64,000 nucleotides of DNA from a virus: IMG/VR virus record IMGVR_UViG_3300032053_000013, positions 1-64,000 of that record; one strand, written 5' to 3'. Positions 4,142-51,725 of the stretch are shown here, in pieces (position 1 is the stretch's first letter; every line of letters starts with the position of its first letter). A program made the translations under genes and the position numbers. The notes below the pieces were generated by a model, which ran no database searches, was not told the origin of the DNA, and worked only from the letters and a program-made list of their open reading frames with translations.

Positions 4142-4367
4142 GCAGTGCTCGTGGTGCCAGGCGCTCGACGGCCAGTCCTACTGGAAGGTCGTCGACGGGG
4201 TCCTGGGCGGGAAGGACGGCAGGGCGCGGGGAGTCTGCCGCCTGCGGGATTTCCATGCGCTTCTTGAGGGCGGCGAGGAGAAGGATGTTTCCTTCTGCTC
4301 GAAGGCTGAGGCCGACCTCTGGGCGAAGGAGCAGGGTAGGAGGTTCGTCGGGTGGCGGGTCCGCTGA
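4134..4367 (+). CDS. Small hypothetical protein
   Basis: CSWC motif, fits tiling. Confidence 0.55.
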   Translation: MAKQCSWCQALDGQSYWKVVDGVLGGKDGRARGVCRLRDFHALLEGGEEKDVSFCSKAEADLWAKEQGRRFVGWRVR

Positions 4368-4831
4368 TCCTCCCAAGGGCGTTCTTCGACGTCCTCAGGG
4401 CGGGCAGGCTCGGGAAGAAGGACGTCGGGATCAGGGTCAAGCTCGGAGGGGGGCGCGTCGTCCTCTGGATCGAGGTCGGCGGGGCGAGCCACGGGTTCGA
4501 GATCTCGCGGAGGGGGCGTGGCGGGAGGGTGCGGGTCCTGTCCCTCGACGGGAACGCGGAGGAGGAGACGCGGGGGTGGGCGGCGGCGGCGGAGGTCGTC
4601 CGAGGAGATGCGGAGGCGGCCTGGGTCGGGGACGTCATGGCCGGGGAGGGCGGGGGGGGCCTGACGGGGGGTCGGGCCCTGCCGAAGGCCCGCCGGACGG
4701 CCGACATGGCCTCCTTTCCTGCTCGCCACGGGTTATACGCCAGCCGGGGGCCCGGAGTGACGCGGAAACCTTACGTTCCCGGAAAGATTTCCCCGGAATT
4801 GCCGTTGACTAAAGGGGGAAAACCTATATAA
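4352..4831 (+). CDS. Hypothetical protein; 3' part doubtful because it runs through promoter P2
   Basis: Only + strand ORF filling the gap. Confidence 0.35.
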   Translation: MAGPLILPRAFFDVLRAGRLGKKDVGIRVKLGGGRVVLWIEVGGASHGFEISRRGRGGRVRVLSLDGNAEEETRGWAAAAEVVRGDAEAAWVGDVMAGEGGGGLTGGRALPKARRTADMASFPARHGLYASRGPGVTRKPYVPGKISPELPLTKGGKPI

Positions 4832-4852
4832 TATAGGTGTGATGAGTGAGGA
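4785..4852 (+). promoter_or_regulatory. Early-type promoter P2: TTGACT-N16-TATAAT with a palindrome over the -10
   Basis: TTGACT 4805-4810, TATAAT 4827-4832, inverted repeat ACCTATA-TAA-TATAGGT 4822-4838; shares TTGACTAA-N5-GAAAAC-N-TATATAATATA-N-GTGT...GAGTGAG with P1. Confidence 0.85.
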
Positions 4853-4859
4853 GGGGACC

Positions 4860-5378
4860 ATGAGCTGGGACACCGAGGCCACCAAGAAGGCGAAGAAGGC
4901 GGCGGTCCAGGGAGCCCTGGAGCGGTCCGACGAGTTCGTGGTCCACGCCCTCAAGGCCGTCTACGCCCGGCAGACCGCCGACGAGCGCGGGGCAGGGGTC
5001 ACCGTCCACTCCAACGGGCGGGGCTTCACGGGCTTCGACGCCATCATCCTCTCCTCCTTCGCGAAGCAGGTCTCGAAGTGGGAGGCGGACTCCGAGAGGC
5101 GGTTCTCCTCCCCCCTGTCCCCCAAGCAGATGGCGGCCGCCCGCAAGATGATGCCCAAGTACTGGGCGCAGCTCATCGAGGTGGCGGACGAGAAGGCCAA
5201 GGCGGCCCCCGCCCTGGTCGAGGCCGCGAAGTCCGGGACCTCGCTCCCGCTGATGGATCAGTGGGGGCACCCCATCAAGGACGAGATGGGCAACGTCGTC
5301 CGCATCGAGGGCGAGGACGAGCCGGTGTACTGCCTCGACGGGGACATGTGCTGCGAGACCCCGGCGTCCAGGGCGTAA
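4860..5378 (+). CDS. Conserved large-phage hypothetical protein
   Basis: AL.AVYARQTADE...T...NGRGFTGFDA.ILSSFAKQ...LSPKQ...KYWAQL pattern familiar from large phages; first gene after P2. Confidence 0.75.
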   Translation: MSWDTEATKKAKKAAVQGALERSDEFVVHALKAVYARQTADERGAGVTVHSNGRGFTGFDAIILSSFAKQVSKWEADSERRFSSPLSPKQMAAARKMMPKYWAQLIEVADEKAKAAPALVEAAKSGTSLPLMDQWGHPIKDEMGNVVRIEGEDEPVYCLDGDMCCETPASRA

Positions 5379-5389
5379 CGGAGGGGAAG

Positions 5390-5857
5390 ATGGACCCGAG
5401 GCACGACAAGAGGAAGATCCGCGAGGCCGCGAGGGAGTGGCGCGAGGACCGGAGGGCCGCGGCCGGGCGGGAGAGGAACGCCACATTCCTGGCCGAGGTC
5501 GAGGGGTCCCTCTGCGCGGCGTCGATAGCCGGGAACCCGGAGCCCGACCTGTGCCTGCTCTCGCTGGCCAGGGACTACCTCGCCAAGGGGCTCCAGGCCT
5601 CCCCGAGGATGCGGGAGATCGTCGGGCTCGTGCTCGACCTGAAGGGGGCGGAGCCGGGGGAGGAGCGCGAGGCCCTGCTGGAGATGCTTGAGGGGGCGGT
5701 CGGGCTCCTGCCGAGGACGGGGAGGTCGTTCGCCTACTCCCTCCTGGAGAGGCGGGACGGCTTCCTGTCGTTCTCGAACAGCGACAGGGAGTGGGGCGCG
5801 GTGGAGGACCTGCTCAACCAGGCCCTCGGAAGGGGAGCGTACGCTTTCCGGTGCTGA
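5390..5857 (+). CDS. Hypothetical protein
   Basis: GGAGGGG RBS, ATG 5390. Confidence 0.6.
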   Translation: MDPRHDKRKIREAAREWREDRRAAAGRERNATFLAEVEGSLCAASIAGNPEPDLCLLSLARDYLAKGLQASPRMREIVGLVLDLKGAEPGEEREALLEMLEGAVGLLPRTGRSFAYSLLERRDGFLSFSNSDREWGAVEDLLNQALGRGAYAFRC

Positions 5858-5873
5858 GCCGGAGGAGGACGGG

Positions 5874-5954
5874 ATGGCGACGATGACGGCGGCCGAGAAG
5901 ACGACCCTGTACTGCACCGCCTATTGCATCTTAATCTATGATGCAATATACTGA
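5874..5954 (+). pseudogene. Displaced original 5' end of the WGR-ligase gene (MATMTAAEKTTLYCT...)
   Basis: Strong GGAGGAGG RBS; KTTLYCT resembles KSVTLFCV at the start of the ligase beyond the HNH gene; frame stops inside the HNH promoter. Confidence 0.6.
5922..5952 (+). promoter_or_regulatory. Promoter of HNH cassette, TTGCAT-N17-TATACT, overlapped by a 9-bp inverted repeat
   Basis: TTGCAT 5924-5929, TATACT 5947-5952; TATTGCATC 5922-5930 / GATGCAATA 5940-5948. Confidence 0.8.
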
Positions 5955-5974
5955 CATCCAGAAGGAGGTGTCAG

Positions 5975-6502
5975 ATGCAAGGTGTCAAAGGGACCGGTCA
6001 GTCCGGAAGATCGAGGCGTGATCGCGAGCGTAGGGACAGACGTAGACAAGCGGGGTTGTGCCCAACATGTGGGAAGCGCCCGTTTGTTGTGGGCAAGACT
6101 TTGTGTGACCCTTGTAGGTTGGCCAGGAATGCGTCGGTCCACCGTTATCGTCTGACGACTCGCGGAAAGGAACGTACTGATTTCTGGGTCAAGAGGTGGA
6201 TCAAGAAGAATCCAGAGATGCGTCGGGAGCAGTCCCTACGCTGCTATCAAAAGTTGCGCGAAGAAGTGTTCGGGGTCTACGGGAAGGTGTGCGGGTGTTG
6301 TGGGGAAAGTGATATTAAATTTTTGACGATTGATCACATAGCCGGTGGTGGTCGTCGTCATACGGGAGCGATCAAGACGACGCTGTATGCTTGGCTGAGA
6401 CGGGAGGGTTTCCCGAAGGGGTTTCAGACGTTGTGCTGGAACTGCAATGCAGCGAAGCACATCTACGGGCGGTGTCCGCATCAGGAGGTCTGTGGTGGGT
6501 GA
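5975..6502 (+). CDS. Free-standing HNH homing endonuclease
   Basis: CPTC...CDPC Zn finger; YGKVCGCCGE...LTIDHI...QTLCWNCNAAK HNH core; visibly more A/T-rich than neighbours; AGGAGG RBS. Confidence 0.9.
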   Translation: MQGVKGTGQSGRSRRDRERRDRRRQAGLCPTCGKRPFVVGKTLCDPCRLARNASVHRYRLTTRGKERTDFWVKRWIKKNPEMRREQSLRCYQKLREEVFGVYGKVCGCCGESDIKFLTIDHIAGGGRRHTGAIKTTLYAWLRREGFPKGFQTLCWNCNAAKHIYGRCPHQEVCGG

Positions 6503-7613
6503 GCGAGTGAAGTCGGTCACACTTTTTTGCGTCGAGGGCGGAAGCAACAAGCAGTACACGGTCTGGATGGAGCGGTCCGGGAACGGATGGCTCGTGAACT
6601 TCCAGTTCGGGCCCGTCGGCGGGTGGGTCCAGGGAGGGGCCAAGACGAAGTCCCCCGTGTCCCGCGCCCAGGCGGAGAAGGTCTACGAGGGTCTCCTCAA
6701 GCAGAAGCGGGCGAAGGGCTACTCCGAGGGCGAGGACGCCCCGGCGTTCTCGCAGCCCGCCGCCAGGGCCGCGGCCCCCGCCCAAAAGGCCGCCGCGAAG
6801 GCGGAGGATGACCCCGGTCTGCGCCCCATGCTCCTGACGTGGGCGGAGGAGAGCGACCTGGGGTGGCTCGTCGGGGACGACGGGTGGGGGGCCCAGGAGA
6901 AGATCAACGGAAAGCGAATCATGATCAAGGTCACCCGCGGGGGAGTGGTGGGGCTGAACAAGCGGGGCCTGCCCTGCCCGATCCCGGAGGCAGTGGCCCG
7001 CGAGATGTCCGGGTTCGTCGGGGAGTTCGACGGGGAGATGGTCGGGGACGTCTACAACGTCTTCGACATGACGATGGACGGTGTCGCCAACGTGGGGACG
7101 AGCGGGTGCGAGTACCGCCACGGGCTGCTCGCCTCGCGGCTGGCGAAGCCGACGAAGCACGTCCGGGTCGTCCCGCTCGTGGTCGGCGCGGACGCGAAGG
7201 GGGTGCTGGTCGAGGGCCTGCGGGCGGGCCGGAAGGAGGGGGTGGTGTTCAAGCGGCTGGACGCGCCCTACGAGGCAGGGCGGCGCCCGAGCCTGGCGAA
7301 GGCCATCGCCGTGAAGGTGAAGTTCTACGCCGAGATCGCGGTCGAGGTCCTGAAGTGGAACGGGGACAAGTCCTCCGTGGAGGTCGCGGCCCTGGACTCC
7401 GGGCGGCTCGTGTCCGTGGGGAAGGTCACGATCCACGACAAGTATGTCGGCCAGGTGGCGCCGGGGGTGGTGGTCCGGGTGAAGTACCTGTACGCGACGG
7501 AGGCCGCGCAACTGTACCAGGCGAACCTGGACCCGACGGACGACGGCTCGGTGGTCGCCGACCAGGTGGCTGCGGACCCGATCGGGAGGCTGAAGTTCGA
7601 GAACAAGGATTGA
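6495..7613 (+). CDS. ATP-dependent DNA ligase-like protein with N-terminal WGR-like domain
   Basis: TLFC.EGGSNKQY...VNFQFGPVG (WGR-like); PMLL, QEKINGKR (motif I), FDGE (III), VFD (IIIa), EGVVFK (IV), VKVK (V); C-terminal OB fold. Start uncertain (6495 or 6507). Confidence 0.85.
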   Translation: MGERVKSVTLFCVEGGSNKQYTVWMERSGNGWLVNFQFGPVGGWVQGGAKTKSPVSRAQAEKVYEGLLKQKRAKGYSEGEDAPAFSQPAARAAAPAQKAAAKAEDDPGLRPMLLTWAEESDLGWLVGDDGWGAQEKINGKRIMIKVTRGGVVGLNKRGLPCPIPEAVAREMSGFVGEFDGEMVGDVYNVFDMTMDGVANVGTSGCEYRHGLLASRLAKPTKHVRVVPLVVGADAKGVLVEGLRAGRKEGVVFKRLDAPYEAGRRPSLAKAIAVKVKFYAEIAVEVLKWNGDKSSVEVAALDSGRLVSVGKVTIHDKYVGQVAPGVVVRVKYLYATEAAQLYQANLDPTDDGSVVADQVAADPIGRLKFENKD

Positions 7614-47365: not shown

Positions 47366-47671
47366 ATGATCTTCAGGGGCTCCAGGTACGAGGGGTGCAT
47401 GTTCACCGGCGTCCTCGGCAGGGACGGCAAGGTGCGGAAGTTCCTCCACGCCAGGGAGCCGCTCCAGGCCAGGGACATGGCGGACCCCGTCGTCGTCCAC
47501 TCCCTCCAGAGGGGGGAGGTGATCGACGAGCTGGCGTGGCGGGCCGTAGGCAAGCCGCGCCTGTGGTGGGTCATCGCCGACGTGAGCGGCGTCATGTTCC
47601 CCCTGGAGATCGAGCCCGGGACGGAGCTCGTGGTGCCGATGGCGGAGCTCATGAAGAGGAGGGAGTCCTGA
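47366..47671 (+). CDS. LysM-like / P2 gpX-like baseplate protein
   Basis: MIFRGSRY...QRGEVIDELAW...LWWVIAD.....PLEIEPGTELVVP. Confidence 0.8.
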   Translation: MIFRGSRYEGCMFTGVLGRDGKVRKFLHAREPLQARDMADPVVVHSLQRGEVIDELAWRAVGKPRLWWVIADVSGVMFPLEIEPGTELVVPMAELMKRRES

Positions 47672-48936
47672 TGGGCCGTGGCGCCCCGTGCTTCCCCGTG
47701 GTCGGCCTGGGGGTGGGCCTTCCGGCCCCCGTGGTGGTCCCGGACGTCGGGATCGTCGGGGTCCCGTCGCTCCCCGGGGGCGTCGCCCTCGCGTCGAGGC
47801 CCGTCAGCCGCAACAGGAAGTTCAGGGCGGCGCCGAACTTCAGCGTACTCGGGTTCACGGCGGACAGCGGGGTGGTGAGGGGGCTGAGGCTCGACGAGGT
47901 GGCGGGGTTCGGGCTGTCCGTCGTCAGGGTCGTGCTCAACAACCTCAACAACCGGCTCGGGAAGACGATCCTCGCGAAGGAGCAGTCCAGCTTCGTAGTG
48001 TCCCTCGGGTACGACAACCCCGGCCAGTTCCCGCACGGGACTTTCGTCGTCCAGCGGCCGAAGTTCCGGTACGCCGCCGGGGGCGGGCCCATGACCGTCG
48101 AGATCGTCGCCTACGGGGAGGCGGTCAAGCTGGGGGCCACCGAGCGCCGCGAGGCCTACCGGAAGATGGCGGACTCCGACATCGTCTCGGCGATCGCCTC
48201 CAGGAACGGGATGGCGGCGGACGTCGAGGCGACGACCCCGATCTACGACCAGGTCATCCAGGCGAACGAGAGCGACTGGAAGTTCCTGGAGAGGCGGGCG
48301 AAGCTCTACGGGTACGTGCTCTACGTGGACGCCGGGACCCTCCACTTCCACAAGGTGAGGCCGAGGGAGAGCGGGATCTCCGTCATGGGCGGGTCGGAGC
48401 CGGGCGTGCTCCAGGACTTCATGGTGCAGTCCAGGACGTTCATGAGGGGCCTGTCCCTCACCATGACGCAGATCGACCCGGTCACGAAGGACGAGGTCCT
48501 CGCGGTGTCCACGGAGTCCCCCGACGCCGTCCAGTCGACGATGGACTTCCGGAACTGGTCCGAGCTGGTGAGCATCCCCGGCGTGGGGCAGCCGAAGCGG
48601 TTCGTCGTGGGGGAGGGCCACCGGCAGTCCAGCACGGAGCTCGCGAGCATGGTGGACCAGATGGCGAAGTCAACGCGGTACGTGATCGCCGGGAGCGGGC
48701 TCCTCCACGGGATCGAGCAGCTCCGGGCGAACGACGTCATCGAGATCAACGGGGTGGGCCGGTCGAGCGGGAGGTACTTCGTCACCAGGGCCCTGCACGA
48801 GATCGAGGCCGAGGAGGGGTCGACCGGGGGAGGGTACAGGGTCAGGTTCGACGTCGTGAGGTGCGGCGCCGGGCCGCTGTCGGCGGCCTCGGGGACGCCG
48901 GTGGAGCCGCAGAGCGCCGGGACCGTGGCGCTGTAG
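47671..48936 (+). CDS. Baseplate hub (P2 gpD / T4 gp27-like)
   Basis: DSDIVSAIA..NG, QANESDWKFLERRAKLYGY, LRANDVIEINGVG..SGRYFV. Confidence 0.85.
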   Translation: MGRGAPCFPVVGLGVGLPAPVVVPDVGIVGVPSLPGGVALASRPVSRNRKFRAAPNFSVLGFTADSGVVRGLRLDEVAGFGLSVVRVVLNNLNNRLGKTILAKEQSSFVVSLGYDNPGQFPHGTFVVQRPKFRYAAGGGPMTVEIVAYGEAVKLGATERREAYRKMADSDIVSAIASRNGMAADVEATTPIYDQVIQANESDWKFLERRAKLYGYVLYVDAGTLHFHKVRPRESGISVMGGSEPGVLQDFMVQSRTFMRGLSLTMTQIDPVTKDEVLAVSTESPDAVQSTMDFRNWSELVSIPGVGQPKRFVVGEGHRQSSTELASMVDQMAKSTRYVIAGSGLLHGIEQLRANDVIEINGVGRSSGRYFVTRALHEIEAEEGSTGGGYRVRFDVVRCGAGPLSAASGTPVEPQSAGTVAL

Positions 48937-48946
48937 GAGGTGTGGG

Positions 48947-49228
48947 GTGGGGTGCTGCGGAAGGAAGTCGAGGGTGGAGGCGAGCCCGGTGCCGAGGGGG
49001 CACGCCGTCAGGGAGATCGCCGTGCGGCCGGTCGCCATGCCGATGACGCCGCCCGCCCCGCCCAGGCCGCCCGCCGGGTCGCCGGGGTTCTCCGCGACCA
49101 TCCAGCCGACCAAGACAGTCGTCTGCAAGAGGTGCGGGGCGCGGCTCGCGCTGAAGCACGTGTGGAGCGGGCGCCTCCGGCGGTACTACGACGTCTCGTG
49201 GTGCCCCGGATGCGGGAAGGGGGGGTAG
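48947..49228 (+). CDS. Small Zn-ribbon protein
   Basis: MGCCG start, CKRC...CPGC. Confidence 0.65.
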   Translation: MGCCGRKSRVEASPVPRGHAVREIAVRPVAMPMTPPAPPRPPAGSPGFSATIQPTKTVVCKRCGARLALKHVWSGRLRRYYDVSWCPGCGKGG

Positions 49229-49384
49229 GTGGTCCTGAGGTTCGTCGTCGCCGTCGCCCTCGTCGAGGCCGTGGTGGAGATCACGTCCACGGCGGAAGTG
49301 TTCGAGGGCGTCCGGGCATGGCTGGCGGGCAGGGGAGAAAAGCCCCGGAAACTGGGGATTTTCGCCCGGTGTGGCTACTGCCAA
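49229..49384 (+). pseudogene. Displaced original 5' half of the DUF1360-like gene
   Basis: LVEAVVEITSTAEVFEGVRAWLAGRGEKPRKLGIFARCGYC vs LVEAVVEICAEGEIFEPLRAWLAGRGDKPRKIGVFVRCPYC at 50186; the frame runs on to 49861 as junk over the endonuclease gene. Confidence 0.8.
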
Positions 49385-49392
49385 AAAAGTCC

Positions 49393-49421
49393 TTGCGGTT
49401 ATTGCCAAACAGTAGTATTAT
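49393..49421 (+). promoter_or_regulatory. Promoter of LAGLIDADG cassette, TTGCGG-N17-TATTAT
   Basis: Canonical spacing; ends 6 nt before ATG 49428, so possibly leaderless. Confidence 0.7.
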
Positions 49422-49427
49422 GGGGAC

Positions 49428-50216
49428 ATGAAGAAGATCAGCGAAAGCACTGCGGCCAGGATCGCGGACCTCTACAGGGAGGGGCACTCCTCCTACAAGA
49501 TAGCCGAGATGCTGGGGGTGGGGCACAGTGCCGCGAGCAAGTACGCGAGGTGGCTCAGGATCTCCAGGACGAGAAGCGCGGCAAGCGTCCTCGCCCGGTT
49601 GAGGGACACGGAGATCAACGTCGAGTTCTTCAAGGAGTGGAGTCCCAACCTCGCATATCTTCTCGGAATCATCTGGACAGACGGATGCCTCGGGAAGACT
49701 ACTCGGGGGGAACAGGTGATCCTCTCGATGAAGGAGTCGGAACTCCTTGGGAAGATCGGGGAAGCCACGGGGGCCAAGGTCTCGCAGCACAGGAATCGAA
49801 AGGAGTGGATCTGGACGATTCGATTCAGCCTTTTGACGGTCGTTTCCTGGTTCAAGGATAGGGGACTCACGGGCAGGAAATCCTTCACGGTCGAATGGCC
49901 GAAGGGGTTGCCGGAGGGCCTGGAGATTTCTTTCGTTCGGGGGCTCATAGATGGGGACGGGTCGTTCGGGATCGACAAGAGGAACGGGTCTCTGATGTTC
50001 GGGTTCGTCTCGGCCTCGGAGGTCTTCGCAAGGCAGATGAGGGAGTGGCTCGGGGCGCGGGTTGCCGGAGGGAGCTTCTTCTGCGAAAAGGGTAGGTACT
50101 GGAGAATACGGTACGGCGGTCGGGGGGCAGAGAAGATCCAAGAGATGCTGTCTCCGAAGGATGGGGAGTGGGGGCTCGATAGGAAATGGAAGATGTCCTC
50201 TGGAAGTTGCCGATAG
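49428..50216 (+). CDS. Free-standing LAGLIDADG homing endonuclease with N-terminal HTH
   Basis: YKIAEMLGVGHSAASKY HTH; AYLLGIIWTDGC and FVRGLIDGDGS motifs; more A/T-rich than flanks. Confidence 0.9.
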   Translation: MKKISESTAARIADLYREGHSSYKIAEMLGVGHSAASKYARWLRISRTRSAASVLARLRDTEINVEFFKEWSPNLAYLLGIIWTDGCLGKTTRGEQVILSMKESELLGKIGEATGAKVSQHRNRKEWIWTIRFSLLTVVSWFKDRGLTGRKSFTVEWPKGLPEGLEISFVRGLIDGDGSFGIDKRNGSLMFGFVSASEVFARQMREWLGARVAGGSFFCEKGRYWRIRYGGRGAEKIQEMLSPKDGEWGLDRKWKMSSGSCR

Positions 50217-50596
50217 CGATTGTGCTCGTAGAGGCGGTCGTTGAGATCTGCGCCGAGGGGGAGATTTTCGAGCCCCTCAGAGCATGGCTCGCCGGGAGGG
50301 GAGATAAGCCCCGCAAGATCGGTGTGTTCGTGCGTTGCCCCTACTGCATGTCGGTTTGGATGGCAGTCGGAGCGGCCTACCTGCTCCAGGTCATGGGGGT
50401 CTTCGGGTGGATGGGGTGGTTCGAGCCGGTCCTGTGGGGATTTTTGATCCACCGGGCGTCGAATCTGTGGCACGAGGTCGTGTCGAGGCATCTGGGGCGG
50501 GTGCCTTTCACCCTCTTCATGCGGACCTGGAGGCACGAGGAGGTCGAGGCGAAGCCGGAGGAGAGGAAGGGGGATGGTGGAGCCGCTACAGGGTAA
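50186..50596 (+). CDS. DUF1360-like membrane protein (intact copy)
   Basis: FE.LR.W....G.FVRCPYCMSVW plus hydrophobic helices. Confidence 0.75.
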   Translation: MEDVLWKLPIAIVLVEAVVEICAEGEIFEPLRAWLAGRGDKPRKIGVFVRCPYCMSVWMAVGAAYLLQVMGVFGWMGWFEPVLWGFLIHRASNLWHEVVSRHLGRVPFTLFMRTWRHEEVEAKPEERKGDGGAATG

Positions 50597-51725
50597 CTCG
50601 ATGCCGTTCTCCGAGCGGCGATATTACGGATGCTACCGTGGCACGGTCGCGGACAACCTCGACCCCCTGCGCCTCGGGCGGGTGAAGTGCAGGTGCCACG
50701 AGGTCCTGGGGCTGGAGATGACGACGGACTGGGCGGCCTACAAGGGGGGGCCGTTCGGGGGCGACCTGGACTGCGGGGTCTTCGCCCCGCCGGACGTCGG
50801 CGCGGCGGTGTTCGTCGAGTTCGAGAGCGGGGACGTGAACCGGCCCCTCTTCACGGGTACCTGGTGGGGGCAGAGGAAGGGGATGCCGCCGGAGACCCCG
50901 GCCCTGGCGAGGGCCGACGGGCAGACGTGCTGGAAGACAGACCCGAGCACCTCGGCCCCGAAGGGAATCGACCAGTTCAGGAGCGCGACCAACGAGGACC
51001 AATGCCAGCCCATCTCGCCCCTGCGGGCGAAGGGGCCGCCGCAGTACCCGTGCAACAAGGTCCTCAAGACGAAGAACAACGGGATCACGGTCGAGATCGA
51101 CGACACGCCGGGGAGGGGCAGGATCCACATCTGGCACGGCCCGTCGAAGTCGTGGGTCGAGATCGACTCCGGGGGCGAGCTCTCGGTCAGGGTGGCCGGG
51201 AAGTCCTACGTCCTCGTGGAGGCGGACGACCGGCACCACGTGAAGGGGGGTCGCCACGCCCTGGTCGAGGGGGACGAGACGGTCCGCGTCGGGAAGGACC
51301 GGTGGCTGAGGGTCAAGGCGAACGAGACGCGGGAGGTCGGGGGCCTGCGTGACACGTTCGTCACGGGCAAGGAGCAGAGGGTGAACCAGGCGGGGCTCGA
51401 CGGGTTCGTCGTGGGGGAGGAGCAGAGGGTGGACCAGGGGGGGCTGAAGCACTGGACCATCGGGGACCGGGTGGACGTCGTGGTCGGGAACTGGACGCAG
51501 TGGGTCGTCGGGAACCTCCAGACCAACGTGTTCGGGAACTACGACCGCATCGCGGCGGGCAACATCAGCGACGTCGCCAGCGCGATCGCCCACTCGAAGG
51601 GGACCCCGACGGGGGCGCCTCCGGTCCCGCCGGTCCAGCCCCAGCCCCCGCAGCCGGTCCAGCCCCCGGGGTGCCCGGTCACCCCGCCCGACTTCACGTG
51701 CCCCCCGACGCCCCCGGCCCCGTAG
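50574..51725 (+). CDS. Central spike (T4 gp5 / VgrG-like): OB fold plus beta-helix
   Basis: YRGTVADNLDPLRLGRVK, PPDVGAAVFVEFESGDVNRPLFTG; 8-residue VxGxxxxx repeats; Pro-rich tail. Confidence 0.9.
   Translation: MVEPLQGNSMPFSERRYYGCYRGTVADNLDPLRLGRVKCRCHEVLGLEMTTDWAAYKGGPFGGDLDCGVFAPPDVGAAVFVEFESGDVNRPLFTGTWWGQRKGMPPETPALARADGQTCWKTDPSTSAPKGIDQFRSATNEDQCQPISPLRAKGPPQYPCNKVLKTKNNGITVEIDDTPGRGRIHIWHGPSKSWVEIDSGGELSVRVAGKSYVLVEADDRHHVKGGRHALVEGDETVRVGKDRWLRVKANETREVGGLRDTFVTGKEQRVNQAGLDGFVVGEEQRVDQGGLKHWTIGDRVDVVVGNWTQWVVGNLQTNVFGNYDRIAAGNISDVASAIAHSKGTPTGAPPVPPVQPQPPQPVQPPGCPVTPPDFTCPPTPPAP

Follow-up and report, generated by a model that had tools for sequence, protein, structure and literature searches.

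The window analysed here, a stretch of 64,000 nucleotides of an uncultured virus (IMG/VR record IMGVR_UViG_3300032053_000013, positions 1 to 64,000), contains a DUF1360-like gene into which a free-standing HTH-LAGLIDADG cassette of about 966 bp (49388-50353) has in all probability homed, supplying a replacement 5' half of the gene and leaving a stub. The cassette begins with a brief A+T-rich leader, followed by the endonuclease gene and a new start whose 56 codons come from a divergent homolog of the target's 5' half. The foreign 5' half joins the resident 3' half in frame, so that a full-length chimeric protein is encoded without splicing, and the resident 5' half stays upstream as a redundant stub. 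The target, a small conserved gene for a membrane protein, lies between those for the baseplate hub and the spike in a phage with about 67% G+C.

Anatomy of the locus

The features of the locus are given below; L004, L006 and L009 are related phage contigs with an endonuclease-free allele of this gene.

48947-49228, plus strand: Zn-ribbon-like small gene, the conserved upstream neighbour (open reading frame list; weak Pfam Zn-ribbon matches)
49229-49387, plus strand: stub, formed by the displaced 5' part of the DUF1360-like gene (52 codons to 49384, then junction bases)
49248-49385, plus strand: left identity tract, 138 nt (0 mismatches to L006 or L009, 20 to L004)
49371-49412, plus strand: imperfect direct repeat TGTGGCTACTGCCAAA / TGCGGTTATTGCCAAA, encoding CGYCQ twice (read from the sequence)
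49388-49427, plus strand: A+T-rich spacer, 40 nt, 45% G+C (base composition)
49428-50216, plus strand: HTH-LAGLIDADG homing endonuclease gene, free-standing, 262 aa (Pfam and PDB profile matches)
50186-50353, plus strand: foreign ("type-B") replacement 5' half (new ATG, 56 codons ending in CPYCMS)
50354-50382, plus strand: right identity tract, 29 nt (0 mismatches to L006, 7 to L004)
50354-50596, plus strand: native 3' half of the DUF1360-like gene, completing the chimeric open reading frame with 50186-50353
50574-51725, plus strand: baseplate spike gene (gpV/gp5-like), the downstream neighbour (Pfam Phage_base_V, 3.5e-15)
Putative target site in L006-type and L004-type alleles: ...TACTGCCAAAGTGTTTGG...

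Open reading frames and Pfam matches agree with an earlier note on this DNA, which had placed a stub, an HTH-LAGLIDADG gene and a second gene copy at these positions. The TAG stop of the Zn-ribbon-like gene directly adjoins the GTG start of the stub (49229). The stub translates as MVLRF...RCGYCQ (52 codons, ending at 49384); it retains its start codon and an upstream Shine-Dalgarno sequence, lacks the 3' half, and its frame continues to 49861, out of frame with the endonuclease. The ATG of the downstream copy (50186) lies inside the 3' end of the endonuclease gene, and the overlap that the note had described amounts to 31 nt. The chimeric open reading frame (50186-50596) is complete, has no internal stop or gap and encodes 136 aa, compared with 132-134 aa in relatives; its product keeps 18/18 invariant residues of its family. 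The match of the target gene to DUF1360 (PF07098) reaches 20.5 bits for the window protein (cut-off 21) and 16.9 bits for the L004 protein, with only residues 43-69 aligned. Over 49325-50600 the G+C content falls from about 0.70 to 0.55-0.63.

The endonuclease matches LAGLIDADG_3 (PF14528) with 33.4 bits (cut-off 22.5) and N-terminal HTH families including HTH_23. It contains two LAGLIDADG motifs, LAYLLGIIWTDG and FVRGLIDGDG, with acidic residues kept in both, and the catalytic aspartates D85 and D177 are invariant across six endonuclease homologs. PDB profile matches were obtained to 2dch_X (1.9e-4) and to an I-DmoI/I-CreI chimera (0.0044). By sequence criteria (two motifs, an acidic residue in each, a family-level match) the protein is a double-motif LAGLIDADG endonuclease. 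Its gene occurs in one copy in the 122-kb record. The closest homologs, P0001 (80% identical) and P0002 (76%), share the C-terminal tail RKWKMS.GSCR, i.e. the stretch that overlaps the type-B start. A profile search of viral and genome contigs with the endonuclease recovered about 160 loci, all with 36% identity or less, and the best matches among GenBank phages have 29% identity or less.

The cassette carries no sign of a splicing element, as had been claimed earlier. Comparison of 48900-50900 with Rfam gave no match at E<=1; there is no Hint/intein family of Pfam at the endonuclease locus and no significant RNA fold at the left junction (z 0.5), and neither gene copy shares the reading frame of the endonuclease. 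A reading as an intron or structured RNA was rejected because an Rfam match is lacking and the fold is not significant.

The left junction contains three additional bases, AAA, and a second CGYCQ segment that has diverged. The two repeat units are identical at 13/16 positions, and all three differences are third-position transitions. The repeat is possibly a nested scar; simple homing does not account for the duplicated motif. Within the spacer, a -10-like TATTAT (49416-49421) lies 6 nt upstream of the endonuclease ATG, and the spacer could hold a promoter for a leaderless endonuclease mRNA. The earlier note had proposed a promoter at 49393-49421 (TTGCGG-17 nt-TATTAT), from which the element would also drive the downstream baseplate genes. 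That promoter agrees with the consensus at 8/12 positions, and a consensus promoter scan called none at the window cassette or at the L004 cassette described below; as no upstream terminator was found at the cassette either, neither part of this proposal is upheld.

The element might have arisen by homing and have since ceased to cut, persisting as a frozen scar whose product perhaps acts only as an HTH DNA-binding protein. Many phage homing endonuclease genes are inactive, and the promoter scan provides no expression signal. The mobA gene of T4 has likewise been described as a pseudogene (bioRxiv 10.1101/2022.08.31.505936). Such decay is nevertheless improbable, since the open reading frame is intact and both LAGLIDADG motifs with their invariant acidic residues persist across homologs of 31-80% identity. 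The stub, moreover, shows no decay in 138 nt when compared with a functional allele, implying that the event was recent.

Endonuclease-free alleles and the origin of the two halves

Five related phage contigs (L004, L006 = L010, L009, L011 and L007) share the gene order, including the Zn-ribbon-like gene in the same position, and possess one uninterrupted DUF1360-like gene each, with no endonuclease at this site. The earlier note had regarded endonuclease-free relatives carrying both gene copies as fatal to its reading; all five carry a single copy. The records of L009, L010 and L011 contain no member of this endonuclease family. The cassette is thus polymorphic for presence and absence at one homologous site, with the empty site intact in relatives. 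It interrupts the gene at about codon 52-55 (between CQS and VW), where the gene is a continuous open reading frame in the relatives. In L006 the stub sequence passes seamlessly into the sequence right of the cassette, from TACTGCCAAAGT directly into GTTTGGATGG, as the note had predicted for the join of the old 5' fragment to the 3' half.

The stub and the N-terminus encoded by 50186-50596 are homologous, again as claimed, with 30/53 identical residues (57% aa, E 1e-20) and 101/153-159 identical nucleotides. Their affinities differ. The stub matches L006 and L009 at 152/156 nt (97%) and L004 at 132/156 nt (85%), whereas the new 5' half matches any endonuclease-free allele at 100-106/156 nt only (64-69%); the old fragment is therefore the one closer to the empty alleles, in line with the prediction. 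The 3' half, from 50354, is nearest to L004 (209/240 nt, 87%) compared with 166/237 nt to L006, and its protein agrees with P0007 at 77/82 aa, compared with 31/50 aa in the N-half. Of the description of the downstream gene as a complete, diverged second copy, completeness holds, and divergence is restricted to the first 56 or so codons (50186-50353), the sequence from 50354 being native. The term "recoded" for the new half is misleading, since 20/50 residues differ, so that the half represents a divergent allele rather than a synonymous rewriting.

Tandem duplication in situ followed by drift was rejected because each copy resembles a different natural allele and the type-B half is found on four backgrounds. 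A diverged tract of about 47 nt right of the break, as read against L004, was also discarded: its source is the divergence of L004 itself, and the comparison with L006 shows native sequence directly after the break.

The two tracts identical to L006, of 138 nt and 29 nt, directly adjoin the cassette ends; outside them, identity to L006 is 68-78% and L004 is the nearer relative. They look like co-conversion tracts from the homing event, the left one probably serving also as a homology arm. Ordinary recombination before the insertion could have produced them as well.

The tracts bear also on a one-off illegitimate capture, in which an endonuclease normally intergenic and upstream of a native type-B gene in an unsampled phage lineage was acquired with its right end repaired by homology and its left end joined non-homologously, the stub being debris. 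The free-standing homing endonuclease genes of T4 are located between genes, and the untidy left junction, with its extra AAA and second CGYCQ, would suit such an origin, as would P0011 (see below) if it is a type-B gene without endonuclease. However, 138 nt of the stub are identical to the distantly related L006 and end exactly at the junction; because the resident lineage is L004-like, this tract fits co-transfer with the cassette better than retention from the resident. The stub-plus-replacement layout, furthermore, is found again, with related enzymes, at two further genes, and a one-off capture is unlikely.

The type-B 5' half is joined to three other 3' halves (P0009, P0010 and P0011), whose N-halves agree with the window at 41-45/50 aa and whose C-halves are different. 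Type-B N-halves are 82-90% alike, their C-halves 57-72%. P0009 and P0015 share 32/50 aa in the N-half and 65/67 in the C-half; the corresponding values for P0011 and P0014 are 31/50 and 71/80. At least two of these three backgrounds are linked to endonucleases 76-80% identical to that of the window (P0001-P0009 and P0002-P0010), a linkage based on source contigs of equal size, 13,658 nt for the first pair and 69,659 nt for the second, and on the overlapping tail; P0011 lies on a contig of 7,322 nt without an endonuclease homolog among the matches listed. Judging from this linkage, replacement half and endonuclease apparently travel together. These grafts and the alleles of the relatives support the earlier proposal that the element invades the middle of a coding sequence and rescues it with a 5' half of its own.

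An assembler that stitched two strain variants in tandem could in principle yield copies resembling two different natural alleles on a contig of an uncultured virus. This is very hard to reconcile with an intact 262-aa endonuclease open reading frame between the copies that overlaps the second start, with the same overlap encoded by the homologous endonuclease tails, with an identical chimeric protein (P0006) on 8 contigs from three sources, or with L004, which shows the design independently; an artefact is accordingly the least probable of the alternatives.

According to the preferred reading, homing of the cassette, the enzyme would cut endonuclease-free alleles at or near the boundary between TGCCAAAGT and GTTTGG, the cut site being taken as the insertion point. 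Repair from a cassette-bearing genome would then rely on homology to the stub on the left and to the 3' half on the right, so that the stub, the cassette and a few dozen bases beside them would be copied as one unit. The interrupted stub and the cassette's version of the site (TGCATGTCGGTTTGG) would escape cutting, the predicted resistance of the new allele resting on Q54M and a Ser codon change (AGT to TCG) at the junction. The 34% divergence between the direct repeats would slow the recombination between them that would delete the endonuclease.

The same layout at other genes

The spike gene of L004 possesses a stub of 10 codons (MPFAERRYFG), an endonuclease gene (L004:4438-5268) whose product is 31% identical to the window endonuclease, and a new spike gene (L004:5265-6356). 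The stub resembles the native form seen in the window, and the new start resembles those of L006 and L011. The window spike gene (50574-51725) is the endonuclease-free allele of the site that the cassette occupies in L004. A scan of viral contigs with the spike protein gave no match.

The metK locus of L116 has the same layout, with 11 codons duplicated at 100% aa identity; the differences, as read by eye, are all synonymous. It is the only clear 5' case in a screen of 159 endonuclease loci for duplications between upstream and downstream sequence, which also yielded 3' cases at L094 and L097; the screen misses short stubs, the 10-codon stub of L004 being at background. The candidates L127 and L163 were rejected as compositional noise. 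At L160, the screen returned a 10-residue match within possibly tRNA-like sequence.

Relation to known elements and significance

Homing endonucleases are usually said to require an intron, an intein or an intergenic site to spare the host gene. The cassette would represent a third solution in a phage, in which a spare, differently spelled front half is brought along and the old one abandoned. A phage report of this design was not found in the literature, the closest systems being fungal mORFs and T4 MobA.

Mitochondrial mORFs form gene hybrids in Allomyces macrogynus (atp6) and Glomus sp. (atp6, atp9, cox2 and nad3), where the displaced native segment is 91-98% identical in nucleotides to relatives and the inserted segment 64-81% (PMC3630166); C-terminal duplications are also known from Endoconidiophora mitochondria (PMC6279837). 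As in the window, a LAGLIDADG open reading frame (in mORFs also GIY-YIG) resides in a protein gene without intron or intein, a hybrid gene results, and a foreign duplicate of the displaced segment is carried (native 85-97%, inserted 64-68% here). In contrast to mORFs, which replace the 3' end and leave the native end downstream, the present element replaces the 5' half and leaves the stub upstream, a mirror image; because the 5' half is replaced instead of the 3' end, the element must supply a start codon. No in-frame fusion joins its endonuclease to the host gene, and the element resides in a phage instead of an organelle; the replaced segment makes up 40% of the gene.

The MobA element of T4-like phages combines mobA, an N-terminal extension of gene 60 and a bypass cassette in the topoisomerase large-subunit gene (bioRxiv 10.1101/2022.08.31.505936). 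Both elements are phage homing endonuclease genes within a coding sequence, neither intron nor intein, with close relatives lacking the insert; both encode a region homologous to the target (HomR of MobA, 67-81% DNA identity), and in both the new start of the downstream open reading frame overlaps the endonuclease out of frame (8-32 nt in MobA, 31 nt here). However, MobA is an HNH enzyme, splits its gene into two required subunits, deletes and replaces only about 15 codons and needs a translational bypass of 50 nt, whereas the window element leaves a redundant upstream piece, brings the entire 5' half and does not need recoding.

Free-standing endonucleases of T-even phages (SegB, SegF, SegG and MobE) perform "intronless homing" (PMC2330249, PMC2790892, PMC2988022). 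They resemble the present case as free-standing genes present or absent between related phages, with flanking sequence apparently co-transferred. They differ in being encoded between genes and in being GIY-YIG or HNH enzymes whose cut often falls some way off in a neighbouring gene, and they are not known to duplicate or replace a gene segment. Mitochondrial elements of Tremella fuciformis carry a duplicate of a host-gene segment, for which partial gene replacement has been proposed (PMC7315562). These too are mobile insertions with a foreign homolog of the adjacent host-gene segment, but they are organellar and are described as introns, and they involve neither a promoter nor a start of their own; the duplicate takes the place of the exon that follows, so that the logic is one of 3'-side replacement.

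The present locus is a well-documented case with unusually clean comparative evidence. The chances are about even that the stub is a third working part and that stub, endonuclease and foreign 5' half move as a unit between phages about 70% identical. If so, homing would drive the exchange of half-genes between lineages and would leave endonuclease-free, "vaccinated" hybrids such as P0015 (type-A start, type-B version of the cut site and 3' half of a cassette-bearing lineage). Together with the L004 spike and metK cases, this would amount to a general, splicing-free 5'-side invasion of phage and cell coding sequences by HTH-LAGLIDADG genes. The window and L004 form a natural reciprocal pair, in which a cassette occupies one of the two neighbouring genes and leaves the other empty, a different gene being occupied in each; this suits the study of target recognition and co-conversion. 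Phage annotation, pangenomes and phylogenies will be confused by stubs and chimeras of this kind, as the front and the back of the present gene have separate histories. Endonucleases appear able to shift sub-genic segments between phages only about 70% identical, an added source of mosaicism.

Anatomy of the cassette locus

The 122-kb uncultured-virus record whose opening 64 kb form the window has a completeness estimate of 82%. The cassette locus is surrounded by a tail/baseplate block and is arranged as follows:

47395-48936, gpD-like hub gene of the baseplate block
48947-49228, small Zn-ribbon-like gene of the baseplate block, between hub and stub
49229 (GTG start), stub of the DUF1360-like small gene, MVLRF...RCGYCQ, 52 codons
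49428-50216, endonuclease ORF (262 aa), between the stub and the complete copy
50186-50596, full-length ORF (136 aa) with a second copy of the stub residues
50574-51725, gpV/gp5-like spike gene, 3' neighbour of the cassette locus

The arrangement claimed in the earlier note, a stub, an HTH-LAGLIDADG ORF and an overlapping full second copy, is confirmed. All resemblance of the stub ORF to the small gene ends after codon 52; stub and 136-aa ORF share 30/53 residues (E 1e-20) and 101 identical nucleotides over 153-159. The 262-aa ORF carries a helix-turn-helix at its N-terminus, followed by two LAGLIDADG motifs, and scores 33.4 bits against Pfam PF14528 (cut-off 22.5); its last 31 nt are shared, in a different frame, with the new start. 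A profile built on six endonuclease homologs matches the LAGLIDADG structures 2dch_X and I-DmoI, and the catalytic aspartates do not vary across these six. G+C drops from about 0.70 to 0.55-0.63 over 49325-50600. An Rfam search at the locus returned zero family matches and no intein domain is present there, in agreement with an element lacking both intron and intein.

The promoter proposed ahead of the endonuclease matches only 8/12 consensus positions and is not called by a promoter scan, and there is no support for control of the downstream baseplate genes by the element. A TATTAT motif lies 6 nt before the endonuclease ATG in a 45% G+C spacer, a position that would suit a leaderless mRNA. 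The stub (49229-49861) still has its start codon, preceded by a Shine-Dalgarno sequence, and an open frame of 210 codons takes it past the endonuclease start; ribosomes that arrive from the Zn-ribbon gene may thus translate straight across the site where the endonuclease initiates. A CGYCQ-coding segment occurs twice at the left junction (49371-49412), 24 nt apart, as TGTGGCTACTGCCAAA and TGCGGTTATTGCCAAA. The two segments are identical at 13/16 positions, the 3 differences being synonymous third-position transitions, and each terminates with the insertion edge TGCCAAA.

Empty sites and ancestry of the pieces

Searches using the small protein and an alignment of its family retrieved five related loci (L004, L006=L010, L009, L011 and L007), all with the gene order hub, Zn-ribbon, single uninterrupted small gene, spike. 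An endonuclease between these genes is absent in all five, and none of this HTH-LAGLIDADG family occurs anywhere in the L009, L010 and L011 records. The comparison with endonuclease-free relatives set in advance by the earlier note thus yields a single gene throughout, the outcome that supports its idea; relatives with both copies, which would have refuted it, were not seen.

By flanking genes, L004 is the nearest relative (hub 84%, spike 81% nt) and L006 is distant (68-78% nt). The same holds for the 3' half of the window gene (209/240 nt identical to L004, 166/237 to L006). Identity of the new 5' half to any endonuclease-free allele is only 100-106/156 nt, versus 152/156 for the stub to L006 and L009 (132/156 to L004), and the old fragment is, as anticipated, the nearer one. 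Compared position by position, 138 nt of the stub region (49248-49385) equal L006 base for base, with 20 differences to L004, and so do the 29 nt that border the cassette on its right (50354-50382), where L004 differs at 7 positions. Both tracts abut the cassette exactly and adjoin each other in L006 (TACTGCCAAAGT|GTTTGGATGG), the seamless junction of old 5' fragment and 3' half that had been predicted. Since these tracts lie within L004-like flanks, the locus is a mosaic: L004-like, L006-like (138 nt), cassette, L006-like (29 nt), L004-like. Ordinary recombination before insertion could also have introduced the L006-identical sequence, but the tracts adjoin the cassette with exact edges. We infer that they are co-conversion tracts, left by homing from a cassette-bearing donor with an L006-type allele; the stub would then be the left homology arm.

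Mobility of the replacement half

The 13 relatives of the small protein in the protein database have N-halves of two types:

Type A, ...ITSTAEVFEG...ARC[PG]YCQSVW: all endonuclease-free loci and the stub
Type B, MEDVLWK...ICAEGEIFEP...VRCPYCMSVW: window copy, P0009, P0010 and P0011

Among type-B proteins the N-halves are 82-90% identical and the C-halves only 57-72%, and every type-B C-half has a near-identical counterpart joined to a type-A N-half: window/P0007 (C-half 77/82, N-half 31/50), P0009/P0015 (65/67, 32/50) and P0011/P0014 (71/80, 31/50). P0007 matches the stub at 45/50 residues and the window 3' half at 77/82, which in effect makes it the empty-site allele of the lineage to which the window belongs. 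Among endonuclease homologs the nearest are P0001 (80%) and P0002 (76%); both end in RKWKMS(S/C)GSCR, a tail whose DNA contains the type-B start in a different frame. P0001 and P0009 both come from 13,658-nt contigs, P0002 and P0010 both from 69,659-nt contigs. Matching contig sizes and the shared tail indicate that endonuclease and type-B half travel together, and on these sequence comparisons the replacement half is mobile. The type-B protein P0011 comes from a 7,322-nt contig, from which no endonuclease homolog is among the matches listed. In P0015 a type-A start is joined to the type-B site CPYCMSVW and to a 3' half 65/67 identical to that of the cassette-linked P0009; at the protein level it looks like a hybrid after endonuclease deletion, a "vaccinated" endonuclease-free allele.

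In the proposed mechanism, type-A alleles would be cut at or near the putative site CAAAGT|GTTTGG, which lies in the most conserved stretch of the small gene (C51 and C54 invariant), and donor-templated repair, anchored by the stub to the left and by the 3' half to the right, would copy the cassette. Cutting is not expected at the cassette's own version of the site, which carries Q54M and an altered Ser codon (TGCATGTCGGTTTGG), nor at the stub, where the right half-site is missing. With the direct repeats 34% diverged, loss of the endonuclease by deletion should be slowed. The core interpretation, a cassette with a replacement 5' half, is supported; calling that half "recoded" was an overstatement, as 20/50 residues differ.

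Recurrence and comparison with known systems

L004 is empty at the window's site, yet contains an endonuclease in the next gene, spike (4353-6356). About 160 distant endonuclease homologs were surveyed, among them L116 (MAG contig LSSJ01000022), with an endonuclease within a bacterial-type metK (4804-6880).

L004:4438-5268, HTH-LAGLIDADG gene (276 aa), about ten codons into spike, 31% identical to the window's
L004:5265-6356, complete spike ORF with the foreign-type start MSSSVTGEVFPHQEKRFWG, like the L006/L011 type
L116:4929-5720, HTH-LAGLIDADG gene, 14 codons into metK
L116:5723-6880, complete metK, 3' of the endonuclease

The L004 spike stub, MPFAERRYFG, resembles the window's native spike start; window and L004, each empty where the other is occupied, therefore provide reciprocal empty-site controls in adjacent genes. 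Downstream of the L004 stub come TGgTATAAT, a hairpin and then the ribosome-binding site GGAGGA. In L116 the old metK start, MSKYFFTSESVTEG, remains upstream of the endonuclease; its 11 duplicated codons are 100% identical in protein to the full metK, with all nucleotide differences synonymous in a by-eye reading. In two Bacillus genomes, L094 (4855-6086) and L097 (4801-6083), the duplicated piece is the 3' end: the final ~27 residues of the endonuclease ORF resemble the C-terminus of the adjacent upstream gene (about 40% identity), which looks like a 3'-end version of gene-segment replacement. In L037 (4025-6402) the endonuclease (4836-5627) is flanked by two full-length glycosyltransferase paralogs (35% over 152 aa), which may represent whole-gene replacement or merely tandem paralogs. 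The duplication screen is blind to short stubs, and recurrence counts are therefore minimums.

In classic intronless homing (Seg, Mob), the endonuclease genes are intergenic. The nearest described counterparts are fungal mitochondrial mobile endonuclease ORFs: they bring in a foreign C-terminal gene end, leave the native end stranded downstream, and show a very similar contrast in identity (native segment 91-98%, inserted 64-81%; PMC3630166; PMC6279837). Like the window locus, the T4 MobA element lies in a coding sequence, encodes within the insert a homolog of its target site and has a downstream start that overlaps; unlike it, MobA splits the gene into two needed subunits and requires a bypass (bioRxiv 10.1101/2022.08.31.505936). 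The literature searched contained no account of a homing endonuclease replacing the 5' half of a gene in a phage. The window locus is the mirror image of the fungal mitochondrial design, in a phage, and its chief strength lies in how clean the comparison with relatives is: sites are empty, the gene is chimeric in ancestry, identity tracts flank the cassette, and a sister phage shows the reciprocal case.
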